From positions 5,056,001 to 5,120,000 of the forward strand of contig OX638351.1 of assembly GCA_951813565.1 (NCBI GenBank): DNA of 64,000 nucleotides, given 5' to 3'. This stretch comes from an uncultured Poribacteria bacterium. Lineage in GTDB: Bacteria > Poribacteria > WGA-4E > WGA-3G. The position numbers are program-made. How positions within the stretch are numbered: the stretch's first letter is position 1; every line of letters begins with the position of its first letter. This document shows positions 21,001 to 27,000 of this stretch, one piece after another.

Positions 21001-24000
21001 TCATCCAGATAACCTGTTTCTTGTTTTGGCGTGCTTGGACAATACGTTCAGCAACGATGTTTAGCCGTTCATTTTGATATGGAGGCGTTTCAGCATCTAA
21101 GGTATAGATGTCTGCCACGGTCATCTTGTGTTGGCGTTCAGAGAGCGGCAAGATTCTAAGGCGAGAGCGATTAAATTGTGACATTATTTTGGGATTGTGT
21201 AGTAAGGTCTATGCTGCAAACTTGGCTGAAACAATTTTCGACATACCCGCTTGCTCCATCGTCACGCCGTACATCACATCGGATATCTCCATAGTGCGCC
21301 TATTATGCGTGATAATCACGAACTGCGTATTATCCGAATATGCACGAATAAGATTTGTGAAACGTAGTACGTTTGCTTCATCAAGGGCAGCATCTACTTC
21401 GTCAAGGACACAGAAGGGGCTTGGCTTGATTTTGAAAACAGCGAACAACAATCCAATTGCAACAAGCGAACGTTCACCACCAGAAAGTTGGGTAATACTT
21501 TGTGGTCGTTTTCCAGGCGGGCAAGCGATAATATCAATACCAGATTCAAGGATATTTGATTCATCTGTCAAGCGCAATTCTGTTTCGCCTCCGCCAAAGA
21601 GTTGAGTAAATACCTCTTGGAAGTTAATCTTAACCTGCTCAAACGTTTTGAGGAACACACCTCGTGAAGTTTCGTTGATTTTCTGAATTGCTTGATTGAG
21701 GTCTTGTATTGATTGCTGAACATCATCACGATCTCGCACGAGAGAATCCAATCGCTTCTTGTATTCCTCATGTGCTTCAATTGCCTTAAGGTTGACTGCC
21801 CCCATAGCCGAGATTTCCGCCTTCAATTTTTCAATGTTATCCATCACGTCAATTTCATCAAGTTCTGAAATGGCTGGCACAGAAGATTGTTCCTCGTCTT
21901 CAGATACTTCATCTTGCACCATCGGTTTAGGAATTTCATCAATTGAAACTTGATATTTATCAAGGATGCGGGTTGAGATGGATTTTAATTGCATCTCAAA
22001 TTGCGTTGTTTTCACTTCAAGTTGATTCCGTGTGCGATTTTGCTTTTCAAACTTTTTCTGAATGTCGCGCCTCTCTTTTTCAAGCGTTTCGATCTGCCCA
22101 GAGACCGTTTCATGTTCTTCGGTTAACTCATCTTTTTTTGCTTCTGCTTCAGCCTGGTCCCCCGCAATTCGTAGGAATTTGCGTTGTGTCTCTCTAATCT
22201 GATCAGCGATGTCATGTTTAGTTTGTTCATCAGAGTCAATAATTGCTTGTTGTTCATCAATATTCTGCTCTATTTGAAGTTGTTGTTCATCAAAGTTATC
22301 AAGCTCAGTTGTTAAGCTTTCCAATTTCTGTCGTTGTCCTGCCAAAAAGACTTCCATCTCCTGGCATTCCGCAGCTACTTCTTCTCGTTTATTCTCTTCA
22401 TTTTCAATGTCTTCAGATATCCGCTGAATCCTACGTTCTGTTCTGGTATGTTTTTTGGTGAGTTCTTCAATTTCTACATCAAGGGTCTGCTGTACCCCAC
22501 GTGAAAGATCTACCGTTTCTTGAAAATGTCTATTATCAGTTTCAACTTCAGCGAGTTGTGTTTCAAGGCGTGTAATGTTTTGGTCCGCCAGCTCAATATC
22601 CTTTGTTATGGCAGCTTTTCCAATCTGTTTGTCTTGCAATTGACCAGTGAGTGTTTTTCTGGATTGTTCTGCATTGGCAATTGCCGCAGCGTATGCTTTA
22701 CGTTTTTCATCCTTCTGACTGACAATTTGTTGTAGTTTGCCGATCTTGGTTTGCAACGCATCAAGTTCGCTTGCACGGCTGAGGAGTCCACTTTTCTGTT
22801 GAGCAGTGTGCCCGCCAGTGATAGCCCCCGAAGTATCGAATAATTCACCATCCAAGGTAACCAAACGGGCGTTTGGTTTGAATTTACGTTTCAGTGCAAC
22901 TGCATCATCCATATTTTCAACGATGAGTGTGTTACCCAACAGTTGTTGAACCACAGTCTGGTATTTGTCATCATAATCCACTAATTCTTCTGCAATACCG
23001 ATGACCCCTGGCTCGTAAAGAAGTCCAGCATCAGAGAACGTTCTGCGTCGTAACATATCAAGCGGTAGGAATTTGACCCTGCCTGCGCGATGTTTTTTGA
23101 GAAATGAGATGCCAGCAACAACGTCTTCAGCAGTTTCGGTGACAACATTTTGTATACTACTACCAAGCGCAATCTCTATGGCGACTTCAAATTCGGCATC
23201 CGTGTGGATAAGTTCTGCTACAACACCACAAATTCCACCGAATTGCTCTGGAAAGTGGTCTTTTGCTTGCATAATTGCGCGTACACCTGCGTAGAAACCT
23301 TCATACGCGGATTGTAATTGCTCTAATGATTTATACCGCGAAAGACTACCGCCTAAGTTATCTTCTATTCCGCGTATTTCAGATTCAATTTTTCGAAGCG
23401 CGTCCTGAGTTTCGTTGAGTGTCGTTTCAACCCGTTTTTTCTCCGTCCCAATCTGAAGCAATTCAGCCTCTAATTGGGTCGCTGCACGTTGAATTTCTTC
23501 GCGATCATCTGTAGCAGTTTTTAGCTCCGCTTTCAAAGCATTAGAATTTTCTTTAAGTCGGTCAAGGCTGCTTTCCGTGCTCGTTAGTTTAGTTGCAATT
23601 GTTAAGCGTTTGTTCTTGCGTTCGGAAAGTTGCGCAGCAATCTCTTGCAACTCAGATTGCACCTCTTGGATAGTCTTCCTTGATTTTTCAATACTTGAGG
23701 CGTATGTCTCTAAAACTTGTTGGCGTCCAGTTAATCGGGTCTCTTCAATCTTGAGTGATGCATCAAGTCTTTTCTGTTCTTGCGTTCGTTCTTGTTTCCG
23801 TGTTTGTAGGTTTGCGTGCTGTACATTTAAGGATTCAAGAGTCTGTTGCGCTCGTTGTTTCTGCTGTTGAATATTCAACTGATTTTCTTTATAAATAGCA
23901 AGCTGTCGTTCAATCTTATCTACTTGTTCTTCAATCTCACGTATTTCTTCCTGGGCAACGGTGATTGCAGTATCTAATTCAGTTCGTCTGACAGTTGCGT

Positions 24001-27000
24001 TTTCAATCCCTTCTTCCGCTTCTTGTAAGATCTGATTTGCGTCAGAAACCTCGTTCAAAATTGCCGCTAAGTTATTTTGCGTTTCACGATAATCTGTATC
24101 AAGTTTTTCGTATTCTCGATAAGCTAATTCTAAATCTAATTGTCGGAGTTGTTCATTTAACGATTGCAAATGTTCAGCTTGTTCAGCTTGCTCTCTCAAA
24201 GATTCGGTTTCGCGTTGTAATTCTTGAATAACATCATTGATACGAACCAAATTCTGATCCGCCTCTTTTAATTTTTGGATAGCGGTTTTTTTGCGGTGTT
24301 TGAATTTTGTTATACCCGCAACTTCATCAAAGAGAAAGCGGCGTTCCTCTGGACGCACGTTGAGAATCAGGTCAATTTTGCTCTGCTCCATAACGGAGTA
24401 GGCATCAACACCGACACCAGTATCCATAAAGAGGTCACTAATATCGCGTAGTCGGCAAGACGTTTGATTGATAAGATAACTGCTCTCGCCGTCGCGTGTA
24501 AGTTGTCTGCGGACTTCTACTTCAGGCGAACCGATAGAAAGGTTTTCAGATATGTTGGTAAAGGTCAGCGCGACACTTGCTCTTTGAGAAGGACTAAAAT
24601 TAGCACCACCGTTGAATAGGAGGTCGCGCATATTGGTACACCGAAGGGCACGGGCACTCTGTGTCCCAAGTACCCACCGAATTGCATCAGAGACGTTACT
24701 TTTTCCACAGCCGTTCGGACCAACTATTGTTGTAATCCCCGGCTCCAGTATCAGTTCAACTTCTTCGGCGAAACTCTTGAATCCATTGATTTTGATGCTA
24801 TTTAAGTGCAAAGGTAATCTCCTACCAAAATAAAGCGTGTTTTCTTACATAATTATAACTTAACGTTGTGTTGTCGTATACTTAACCTACTTTTTATACG
24901 AAAAAAATCTCAAAAAGGTTTCATACAGGGTCTAAAGCCCGTGCTAAAGTTAACACATCTATTTCAACTGGGTCGGCATTCCATAAGACTTTTACTGCCT
25001 CATGCACAGTAGCACCAGTGGTGTATACATCGTCCAGAACAAGTATACGTTTGTTCTGCGCAACCTTTTTCTTCTGTAGTTCAAAAGCACCAACAATATT
25101 TGTTTGACGTGCTGCTCTATCCAAGCTGCTCTGCGGTGACGTGTTCCGATGCCGAACCAGAACGTCTGTTACAACTTGAACTCCCGTGGTCTTGGCAATT
25201 CCGTTCGCAAGTAAAGTTGCTTGGTTAAAGCCGCGTTCCCGCAACCGCTTTTTATGAATAGGAATTGGTAAAATAAAGTCGTATTCTGCGATATTGCAGT
25301 CATCGGGAAAATGTTCTATTGTCAATTGGGTAAGCGGTTTGGCGAGTGCTGTTCGCTTCTCAAACTTAAAAAGGTGCATCGCCTGCTGGAGTGCTGCTTC
25401 ATAGAAAGCAATCGTCCGTAATTTTCCGTAAGGTGGCGGTTTGCTCACACATTCATCACAGACATCTTCAGTATTTGGGATGCCGCACATTTCACAACAA
25501 GGCGGTTCAATTAACGGCATATCATGCCAGCATGTTTCACACATATAAGGCACAGATTCAAGTCCGATTTGCTTTTCACAAACTTGACATTGTGCAGGAT
25601 AGAGAAACGTGATTGCTGTTTCGAGTGTTTGTTGGAGGATATTTGGTCGTACTTGCATTAGACGTCGTCATTTCCTTTATTTATACCATTTCTAAATCAT
25701 CGGTTTTCATTAACCAAAAACGCGTTCGTAGTCGCGCAATTCATCGCGCCTCTTACATTCTTCATCAGCAGTTCCCCAAACCCGTTATGATATTATATGA
25801 TGCATCTCGCTACTACTGGGTCAAAGTTAGGGTCTAACAATGCGTTCCTGTTTGAGTGTTTGAATCTCCTGCAGTAAGTTTTCAATCTGTTTATGTAGTG
25901 ATTCTATTCGTTGATCTTGTTCTTTGATGTTTTTTCCCTGCATTGCGATGATGATTTGGGGTATGCCAACTATCGCAGCAATAAAAGCGATTAGAGTGAT
26001 TACCAACACAAATATGTTATTCAGACGTTTGTCCATTTCCGTAATTGTATTATTCACCGGACGAATCTCACTTTTAATCTCTTGAGAGATATATTCTTTC
26101 ATACGTTTTTCAGATGCTTCAACTGCTTTTTCAACTTCCTCTTTCACAACTAACCGGATCTTGTTCAGGTCCGCATCCGTTACTTGACTGTCCGCAGTTA
26201 AACTAAAGAAAAATAATCCAACGATTAAAATCAGCATTAATTTCATCTCTATATCCTCATAAGCAAATTTGGAACCTATTTTCCATACAATTTTAACAGA
26301 AGTTGGCGGTGAGTGCAACCGTATTACAAGGGAAAGAATACTCCCCTACAATGGTCTTGAATCCCATACCATTTCAGGTGCCAATTGCCAATTCTTGTTT
26401 TAGGTCTTGAAACAGTAAAATGTTCCCCTTCTTTAGGTAGGTACTTTCTTTCTTTCAACCAATCTATTGTTGATTGAAGGTTATCTGTCGCTTTTAACTT
26501 TTCTATGAGATGGTTAGCTCGGATAACGGGAACATCTGACGATTGGACATTGCTATATCCAATCCAATTTTCCGAAACAACGGCTCCTTCAAGTCTGTAA
26601 CCTGAATCAATGTTGAGTCTTTTTAATAAAGATTCGTGATTATCCGCAAAAGCTTGTTTCAGTTTCAGAATCTGCGAAATGCCTTCCTTAATCTCTTTAG
26701 ATTTATGAATACGTTCTTGTGCTGTTGTCGGTGCAATAAACCATTTTAGTTCTAAAAGTAAACATGCTTTTTCGGAATGACTTACAATGGCGAGGTCAAC
26801 ATCTGTTAAGTTTGCTACATTTCCCGAATAAGATTTAAAATCTGTATCAGATAATCGGGTCTTAATACACTCTTTCATTAGATATTCTTTTTCATTAACA
26901 TATTTTTGATAGATCCCTTTTTCAGAGGGAAGCCTATTTACGAGGGAAATAAAATTTCGCTCCGCTGCAGAACAAATCCATATATTAGGCACAATTGCGT

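Follow-up and report, generated by a model that had tools for sequence, protein, structure and literature searches.

Candidate single-recombinase modules for FtsK-independent chromosome dimer resolution in Poribacteria that lack FtsK, XerCD and ParABS

Introduction

The described chromosome dimer-resolution systems closest to the loci analyzed here are XerS/difSL, XerH/difH and XerL/dif, each of which pairs one recombinase with a non-coding palindrome of ~30 bp that is present in single copy near the terminus, and in the first two the gene adjoins its site (sections of PMC5357621 and PMC9765430). Both XerS and XerH require FtsK, and in the parts of the literature cited here bacterial dimer-resolution systems are FtsK-dependent where tested. 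In E. coli even plain Cre-loxP recombination at dif still requires FtsK to avoid tangled products (PMC2680272, in part). Archaeal XerA/dif is likewise a single-recombinase system with a 6-bp site centre, and operates without FtsK. The TnpI/IRS units of Tn4430 and Tn5401 have an inverted core (IR1-IR2) with two direct repeats (DR1-DR2) upstream, a layout described in a section of PMC2847244. SMC-ScpAB is loaded by ParB at parS in most bacteria (passages of PMC9449133). FtsK, ParABS and SMC usually act as mutual back-ups: in Corynebacterium FtsK is essential once SMC is absent (PMC11898615, in part).

We analyzed a 64,000-nucleotide stretch of an uncultured Poribacteria genome (the window; contig OX638351.1, positions 5,056,001 to 5,120,000) in the context of the whole source genome (G000) and its relatives. 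The genome-wide survey's note had held that FtsK, XerCD, ParABS, topoisomerase IV and the elongasome are missing and that segregation is left to SMC-ScpAB. The losses stand, but SMC probably does not act alone, as conserved recombinase modules with linked sites had been overlooked. A large-genome lineage jointly without FtsK, ParAB, XerCD and topoisomerase IV illustrates how small a set of dedicated components can suffice for a bacterial chromosome, and two clonable gene-plus-site modules offer a way to ask whether chromosome dimers resolve without FtsK and what sets direction. The Poribacteria studied are large-genome sponge symbionts.

Results

The source chromosome is 5.43 Mb long, a single contig without N, and circular as claimed: one 347-aa ORF reads through the joined contig ends, ruling out a linear chromosome. 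The only part of the system inside the window is the smc gene; the other retained components lie elsewhere on the contig.

Window 21209..24811, minus strand: smc, a stand-alone gene for a full-length SMC of 1200 aa
Contig 4,885,889-4,887,324, minus strand: scpA-scpB
Contig 1,962,585-1,973,853, plus strand: dnaA-recF-gyrB-gyrA origin cluster
Contig 3,610,813-3,629,835, minus strand: dcw cluster
Contig 3,686,295-3,688,051, plus strand: minCDE
Contig 1,130,894-1,131,679, plus strand: recA

SMC is encoded in single copy, scores 1030 bits against a TIGR02168 cut-off of 567, and has intact Walker A/B, signature and hinge motifs; ScpA and ScpB complete the components of an SMC-ScpAB condensin. FtsZ, FtsA, FtsW, GyrA, GyrB, TopA, ScpB, MinD and MinE exceed their NCBIfam cut-offs. 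ScpA, MinC and the single class-B PBP fall below theirs but sit in the expected operons, ScpA also exceeding its Pfam cut-off and being found in 147 of 151 genomes. The survey's list of retained functions (FtsZ/A/W/I, MinCDE, gyrase, SMC-ScpAB) is thus upheld. The dnaA gene is retained in 142 of 151 genomes, in most with gyrA only a few kb away, and is missing from all seven genomes of family f4. Since RecA is encoded, chromosome dimers can form.

As read from gene content and gene order, the reported losses are upheld, and the case for them is stronger than first stated, being backed by deletion scars and by 173 class genomes. We found no FtsK in the source genome, and full-length FtsK occurs in 0/173 class genomes against 3/3 from the sister class, in line with the class-wide absence previously claimed. 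The FtsK locus carries no deletion scar because its sister-class neighbor genes are dispersed in the source genome. Neither ParB nor a sister-type ParA was found there, and relative to sister-class gene order both parAB and the elongasome operon have been cleanly excised.

Contig 954,245-954,295: parAB deletion scar, from comparison with sister-class gene order
Contig 2,795,121-2,795,381: mreBCD-pbp2-rodA deletion scar, on the same basis

The parAB scar and the lack of any ParB_N match in the source genome agree with the reported absence of ParB. Scans with consensus motifs for canonical dif, KOPS, Chi and parS gave nothing convincing in this genome: there is no KOPS polarity, and no perfect parS, only three one-mismatch sites, none close to dnaA. 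The source genome therefore has neither ParB nor a perfect parS for loading SMC-ScpAB, and none of XerC, XerD, FtsK or KOPS polarity for an XerCD/dif-FtsK system. MreB, MreC, MreD, PBP2 and RodA were not found in it either. The claim that MreB is missing throughout the class is too broad, as class genome G004 retains MreB, MreC, PBP2 and RodA. No XerC or XerD was found in the source genome, as reported, and XerC-type genes are absent order-wide (0/159, against 12/14 outer-class genomes and 3/3 of the sister class); the survey's caveat that Xer-like genes persist in other class families was correct. No second gyrA/parC or gyrB/parE was found in the source genome, whose sole GyrA-type protein scores over the gyrA and under the parC cut-off and has a GyrA-box. 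Topoisomerase IV is thus missing as stated, but this is not special to the class, all three sister-class genomes lacking it too. On these distributions the losses are staggered rather than one event: topoisomerase IV across the whole phylum sample, FtsK and chromosomal ParAB at the class, the elongasome in the class except family f7, and XerCD at the order.

The sole tyrosine recombinase of the source genome is, as noted earlier, a 203-aa protein without the SAM (N-terminal core-binding) domain of characterized Xer proteins. A near-invariant palindrome lies beside its gene, at 0.48 of the circle from dnaA.

Contig 4,771,354-4,771,965, minus strand: 203-aa tyrosine recombinase
Contig 4,772,028-4,772,063: its 36-bp palindrome

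Of 38 genus genomes, 26 carry the gene, with conserved synteny and 77-100% identity, and 12 do not. The tyrosine-recombinase active site is intact, with catalytic R-K-H-R-H-Y invariant in 15 aligned sequences of this type. The palindrome is single copy in the source genome and accompanies the gene at 26/26 orthologous loci, always with the same 6-bp centre. A palindrome-arm search of genomes (596 Gb) returned 30 matches, of which 26 adjoin the 203-aa gene and four lie in records not titled Poribacteria. In five of five genus genomes without the gene the palindrome is also gone and the locus otherwise intact. An excisable cassette between two sites was considered and rejected: the conserved block downstream of the gene persists in all five, and hence lies outside the module. 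Its position is less consistent than that of the f2/f3 module described below: 5/8 genus genomes have it 0.42 of the circle or more from dnaA, and one has it at 0.19.

This unique, conserved, non-coding palindrome linked to a recombinase gene is what a dif module would look like, and the pair may be a candidate single-recombinase dif-like module. The top fold match of the protein model is XerA (5HXY; TM 0.73-0.75). The module differs from archaeal XerA/dif in its bacterial host, its 25-28% identity, its missing SAM domain and its 15-bp rather than 11-bp arms. Gene and site adjoin as for XerS and XerH, in genomes that lack the FtsK those systems require, but against XerS, XerC and XerA the protein reaches only 80-97 bits (cut-offs 220-335) and has no N-terminal domain. 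FimB/FimE invertases resemble it in being ~200-aa, catalytic-domain-only proteins; they differ in sequence (27-29% identity; 30-38 bits against a cut-off of 221), and the gene has one palindrome rather than two inverted sites around a switch. As there is no core-binding domain, the palindrome has no accessory repeats and it abuts a likely promoter, it could instead be an operator.

Families f2 and f3 contain a different recombinase, of 300 aa, which is absent from the source genome and from seven of seven further family-f1 genomes. It is encoded in 30 of the 31 f2/f3 genomes searched, in single copy and with 61-91% identity to the query across both families, and a conserved 129-aa orphan gene lies downstream of it. 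In our tree it clusters with plasmid and Tn3 tyrosine resolvases and not with XerC/D, in a group (support 99/96) that includes a Tn3-linked resolvase and two 306-aa Bacillus plasmid proteins; we take the latter to be Tn5401-type TnpI from the gene layout in a section of PMC7157771 rather than from direct comparison with the reference. Upstream of the gene, 29/30 loci show a pair of inverted motifs separated by 6 bp together with two direct repeats (IR1, IR2, DR1, DR2), the TnpI/IRS layout. The motif is one base off that found in the same layout upstream of the two Bacillus recombinases. The f2/f3 module differs from TnpI/IRS in being chromosomal, single copy and near the dnaA antipode, in its orphan gene and in its 32-38% identity; no linked Tn3-type transposase was seen when 25 loci of 12 kb were inspected. 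Extra copies of the core motif occur elsewhere in four of five genomes scanned.

The 300-aa module lies at least 0.42 of the circle from dnaA in 19/23 f2/f3 genomes, against 4/23 for scpA. These counts treat contigs as circles and leave out G104, G124, G028, G067, G110, G088 and fragmented assemblies (contig well short of the genome, or genes split), and they are not independent, as 13 of the 23 genomes share one neighborhood and scpA is terminal too in genus g5. The modules occupy four unrelated gene neighborhoods, three of them close to the antipode. The one locus without a core site, in G101, is at 0.14 of the circle, and no displaced core site was found at the antipode of that genome; in G072 the site is intact and lies at 0.29. 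Regions near termini are common landing places for horizontally acquired genes. GC skew in the source genome is weak, as reported, and irregular; its third-position component reverses around 1.45 Mb rather than at dnaA or the palindrome (z = -4.9 for the dnaA/site split). In G024 the skew signal is weak, with agreement limited to 12-13 of 20 windows. Skew was accordingly rejected as independent proof of terminus position.

The 255-aa recombinase of genus g2 was considered as a further terminal module and rejected: a palindrome was not found, and the gene is at least 0.42 from dnaA in 9/20 genomes against 13/20 for scpA. The single-contig genomes G034 and G084 have no tyrosine recombinase whatever.

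Discussion

We propose that chromosome dimers may be resolved without FtsK by resolvases recruited from mobile elements, within a wider model of stepwise losses, SMC-ScpAB and gyrase; we rate this as roughly an even prospect. Cells would be ovoid, with wall built only at an FtsZ ring placed by MinCDE; ovoid Poribacteria with evenly spread DAPI signal are described in part of PMC5087111. SMC-ScpAB would load without ParB and individualize sister chromosomes, gyrase would decatenate them, and lineage-specific single-recombinase modules kept near the terminus would resolve dimers: the 203-aa recombinase and its palindrome in most of the source genus, the TnpI-like resolvase and its four-motif site in f2/f3. 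In the latter, the accessory repeats could restrict the reaction to resolution, a bias that otherwise comes from FtsK. Since Cre-loxP at dif still depends on FtsK, there would be an advantage in recruiting a resolvase equipped with a topological filter. As XerCD persists in outer families that have no FtsK, the modules were not a precondition for losing FtsK; in the proposed reading they are dispensable, helpful rather than essential.

More tentatively, the whole order, with circular chromosomes of 4-7 Mb and no FtsK, XerCD, ParABS, topoisomerase IV or MreB, may have repeatedly domesticated unrelated resolvases (the TnpI/IRS unit, the 203-aa domain-less recombinase and possibly a serine resolvase-ParA cassette in dnaA-less f4) as FtsK-independent dimer resolvases, with translocase-guided synapsis replaced by a topological filter or by alignment of the arms through SMC.

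A possible but unlikely alternative is polyploidy with passive partition, in which many chromosome copies make ParABS, FtsK and dimer resolution needless and the modules are incidental. The irregular skew and missing KOPS polarity of the source genome fit this, as do the existence of genomes without a recombinase, the even DAPI distribution and the loss of dnaA in f4, given that cyanobacterial dnaA loss may accompany higher ploidy (PMC7198777, in part). The FtsK-less controls, Synechococcus, Thermotoga and two archaea, point the same way. Several of these are polyploid. Polyploidy leaves unexplained the invariant sites beside unrelated recombinases and the antipodal position in three neighborhoods, and dnaA is retained, mostly near gyrA, outside nine genomes of the 151. 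It is partly compatible with dimer resolution by the modules.

Somewhat less probable still is that the modules are stranded transposon or plasmid relics (TnpI with irs; a mini-integrase with an operator), retained because they regulate themselves, serve in some other recombination or mark where SMC is unloaded; dimers would then be rare or tolerated, with SMC doing the rest as the note held. TnpI binds its own site to regulate its own promoter (a section of PMC7157771), unloading of SMC by XerD at the terminus has been reported (cited in part of PMC12479847), and the modules are patchy, with no positional signal in g2 and additional f2/f3 core motifs. Against relics stand the invariant catalytic residues and 6-bp centre of the 203-aa module, needless for an operator, the single-copy conservation of the 300-aa gene over two families, and inspection of 25 f2/f3 and 26 genus loci, which showed no conserved Tn3-type transposase or other element genes beside the modules, only scattered IS-like ORFs.

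It is improbable that an unrecognized translocase or partition system (a HerA-type ATPase, an orphan ParA or a divergent ParB) replaces FtsK and ParAB. HerA-domain proteins occur in the source genome (689 aa) and in G119, but in only two of five genomes and partially, so HerA fails as a universal FtsK substitute. ParA-like ATPases occur in 7/7 f4 genomes and one f8 genome. ParB_N proteins occur in 29/148 genomes, and two tested pass TIGR00180, but they score 22-56 bits against 124-127 in the sister class, have no parA neighbor at 17 loci and are absent from the source genome, leaving a chromosomal ParB unsupported. All these candidates are patchy. The source genome has no MukBEF or topoisomerase III, and topoisomerase VI was found in none of five genomes.

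It is exceedingly improbable that incomplete or mis-assembled metagenome genomes produced the apparent losses, for although titled relatives are MAGs and the source genome is rated 95% complete, the latter is a circular contig with precise deletion scars, identical absences recur in 133 genomes at least 90% complete and three fragmented sister genomes still show FtsK, XerC-type, ParA and RodA, which together refute an assembly gap.

Judged by their listings, none of the papers listed for Poribacteria with FtsK, cell division or dnaA loss treats these findings; the search covered sources other than subscription papers and Poribacteria pangenome papers and supplements, which may bear on novelty. 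The nearest counterparts among our controls are Thermotoga maritima and Synechococcus elongatus, which likewise have no FtsK match, no XerC at 1e-70 and a ScpA, and the former no ParB_N match. Both have genomes of 1.9-2.7 Mb and keep MreB and rod shape, whereas most genomes here measure 4-7 Mb, and the elongasome is missing as well.

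Genes for chromosome segregation and the elongasome are missing

The smc gene itself is ordinary, and the finding lies in what this Poribacteria genome lacks.

Window 21209-24811, minus strand: smc, 1200 aa (TIGR02168, 1030 bits against a cut-off of 567)

The encoded SMC is the only one in the genome, its head and hinge motifs are intact, and scpA-scpB lies 190 kb away from it. The assembly is one contig of 5,426,982 bp with no N, and its ends fuse into one 347-aa ORF, so it is circular. FtsZ, FtsA, FtsW, GyrA, GyrB, TopA, ScpB, MinD and MinE exceed their NCBIfam cut-offs; ScpA (found in 147 of 151 genomes), MinC and the single class-B PBP score below theirs but are placed within their own operons. 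RecA and DnaA are encoded, and GyrA contains a GyrA-box. Topoisomerase III and MukBEF were not found in this genome, nor was ZapA when searched with the E. coli query.

The losses are real. Neither Pfam, E. coli FtsK nor three FtsKs of the sister class matched anything here. When a sister FtsK was searched against 176 phylum genomes, 7 matched. The three sister genomes did so at full length, whereas the match in the other 4, out of 173 class genomes, was confined to the ATPase domain of frames 954-1813 aa long. The count of full-length FtsK (0/173 in the class versus 3/3) bears out the genome-wide survey's note, which had FtsK missing from the genome and its class. That note also held MreB to be missing across the class. 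This stands for 148 class genomes, in which the best match is partial (at most 99 bits) and probably Hsp70-like, against ~500 bits and two copies in all three sister genomes. Five further class genomes contained a single exception, G004 (family f7, 79% complete, 1190 contigs), in which MreB and RodA exceed their cut-offs and adjoin MreC and PBP2 among Poribacteria-like neighbours (loci L350, L351). No other class genome was found to have mreB-mreC and pbp2-rodA; G004 brings class totals to 1/153 for MreB and 1/173 for RodA, and reflects either a genuine early branch or binning contamination.

ParB_N domains occur in 29 of 148 class genomes but score just 22-56 bits there, where the sister class reaches 124-127; both proteins tested exceed the TIGR00180 cut-off, and no parA was found beside the gene at 17 loci inspected. 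Loci L027-L043 hold two patchy cassettes of ParB_N plus a partner gene, one linked to an SNF2-type helicase, which are probably mobile or defence modules. Sister-type ParA is present in 8/173 class genomes (37-48% identity), 7 of them in family f4. One gyrA/parC-type match was obtained in 144 of the 147 genomes having any (151 searched, sister class included). The reported absence of topoisomerase IV therefore holds but is phylum-wide, since the sister class also has a single such gene; topoisomerase VI was absent from the 5 genomes searched. The claimed loss of XerC/D applies to the order (0/159 at 1e-70), but not to the outer families, where 12/14 genomes keep XerC-type genes, mostly in two copies, as do 3/3 sister genomes. 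Families f5, f6 and f8 retain a canonical XerC/XerD-type pair, with FtsK not found.

Gene order bears on how the genes were lost, the scar-flanking genes being named by reading their sequences. In the sister class gidB-parA-parB is followed by an anti-sigma-antagonist gene; here gidB (contig 954,295) lies only 50 bp from that gene and parAB is gone. Where the sister class has kinase-regulator-mreB-mreC-mreD-pbp2-rodA-radical SAM-RNase G, only kinase-regulator-RNase G is left here, at contig 2,795,121-2,795,381. Both absences are deletions and not assembly gaps. The FtsK locus has no readable scar. The losses were staggered, with FtsK lost before XerCD. Poribacteria cells are described in PMC5087111 as ovoid (1.5-2.2 by 0.9-1.2 µm) with an evenly spread DAPI signal, the shape being consistent with loss of MreB.

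Two unrelated recombinase modules

Contig 4,771,354-4,771,965: lone tyrosine recombinase, 203 aa, no SAM domain
Contig 4,772,028-4,772,063: 36-bp palindrome, single occurrence in the genome

The single, catalytic-only recombinase noted by the survey was recovered. Its active site is invariant among aligned orthologues, and its predicted structure (pLDDT 76) has a catalytic-domain fold nearest to archaeal XerA (TM 0.73-0.75). Orthologues occur in 26/38 genomes of the genus, all at one locus. Of the 79 top-scoring loci in a search of 185,579 species genomes, 27 belong to this family (77-96%) and the remaining 52 match at 23-48%, the upper part of that range over short segments only; relatives at 55-62% lie on short metagenome contigs, and one at 51% is in genome G146. 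At 26/26 loci the gene has the palindrome 56-64 bp upstream of it, with 15-bp arms around a 6-bp centre that never varies. Across the genome collection the arms are matched exactly 30 times; 26 of these matches adjoin the gene and 4 are in different records with no recombinase match within 700 bp. In 5 of 5 gene-less genus genomes inspected the palindrome is missing too, the locus being otherwise intact. The site and dnaA, the gene at the head of a recF-gyrB-gyrA cluster, are 0.48 of the circle apart; the module is at least 0.42 from dnaA in only 5/8 genomes of the genus.

Families f2 and f3 have an unrelated 300-aa recombinase, single-copy in 30 of 31 genomes searched, scoring below the XerC/XerA cut-offs and followed by a conserved 129-aa orphan gene. 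At 29/30 loci the upstream region contains a pair of inverted motifs separated by 6 bp, together with two direct repeats. This is the IR1-IR2-DR1-DR2 arrangement of TnpI/IRS, in which the accessory repeats limit recombination to resolution (PMC2847244). Among the top plasmid matches are a Tn3-linked resolvase and Bacillus 306-aa recombinases that adjoin a ParE-type pair. Two of four plasmid upstream regions inspected, both from Bacillus, have the same four-motif layout with the motif one base off, and in a tree carrying a long-branch warning the 300-aa type joins these proteins at 99/96, separate from XerC/D. The module occupies four unrelated gene neighbourhoods, yet its distance from dnaA is 0.42 or more in 19/23 near-closed genomes (g5 4/4, g7 12/13, g6 3/5, g21 0/1) versus 4/23 for scpA, counts over kin genomes that are not independent. 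The core site is missing from a single locus, that of G101, which is also the g7 outlier at 0.14 from dnaA (one case). Additional copies of the core motif occur in G072, G101, G113 and G018 (loci L176, L177, L187-L189); pairs in G072 and G101, 2.6 and 4.5 kb apart, flank small gene modules and resemble pdif modules.

Proposed dimer resolution without FtsK

The chances are about even that these modules carry out FtsK-independent resolution. FtsK is still required in E. coli when a simple Cre-loxP site is placed at dif (PMC2680272), which argues for a filtered TnpI-type module and against the accessory-less 203-aa module acting alone. Against such a role, no tyrosine recombinase was found in single-contig G034 and G084 (two of five searched). 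For the 255-aa recombinase of genus g2 no palindrome was found, and there was no positional signal (9/20 versus 13/20 for scpA). This third type is single-copy, has no SAM domain (loci L079-L081, L142-L161) and lies directly downstream of a holA-like gene in most loci inspected. The weak GC skew reported by the survey is confirmed: third-position skew changes sign close to 1.45 Mb and runs counter to the dnaA/site split (z = -4.9), 52% of genes are on the leading strand, and KOPS are evenly divided, 86 to 86. In G024, 12-13 of 20 windows agree.

Polyploidy may offer an alternative account. In cyanobacteria, according to PMC7198777, irregular skew and dnaA loss may accompany it, and DnaA was not found in any of the seven f4 genomes (G060, G074, G091, G153, G161-G163), which are fragmented and 80-96% complete. 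The slot upstream of dnaN-recF-gyrB-gyrA was empty in all four f4 loci fetched (f4 loci: L342-L345, L337-L339), and f4, with genomes of 4-7 Mb, is a candidate for a family without dnaA. All seven encode a ParA-like ATPase, accompanied in genus g8 by a small partner gene and by a serine resolvase that has palindromes ahead of it. Two dnaA-type genes are present in 33/36 f2/f3 genomes, the second shorter (~390 aa) and variably placed.

FtsK-independent resolution can be set beside known single-recombinase dif modules: XerS and XerH need FtsK and archaeal XerA does not (PMC5357621). XerL was discovered where Xer had been thought absent (PMC9765430), dif/Xer is missing from some proteobacteria (PMC2731167), and dif prediction was unsuccessful in cyanobacteria and planctomycetes (PMC3025954). 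Thermotoga, a control genome, has the same FtsK, ParB and XerC gaps. Each loss thus has precedent. The listings of open literature searched showed no earlier report of the combined losses in 4-7-Mb genomes across an order, or of mobile-origin resolvase modules opposite dnaA on chromosomes that have no FtsK.

Other features of the genome

In the dcw cluster (contig 3,621,708-3,626,269) three additional genes (248, 549 and 431 aa) lie between murE-like and mraY-like genes. Between dnaA and recF the place of dnaN is taken by an IS-like ORF (contig 1,964,562-1,965,914), and dnaN is located at ~2,263,000. Within the window, a 3642-aa ORF with a signal-like N-terminus occupies 40193-51118 (minus strand), and at 60174-61023 (minus strand) two overlapping ORFs share their 45 N-terminal residues, which points to a short tandem duplication.
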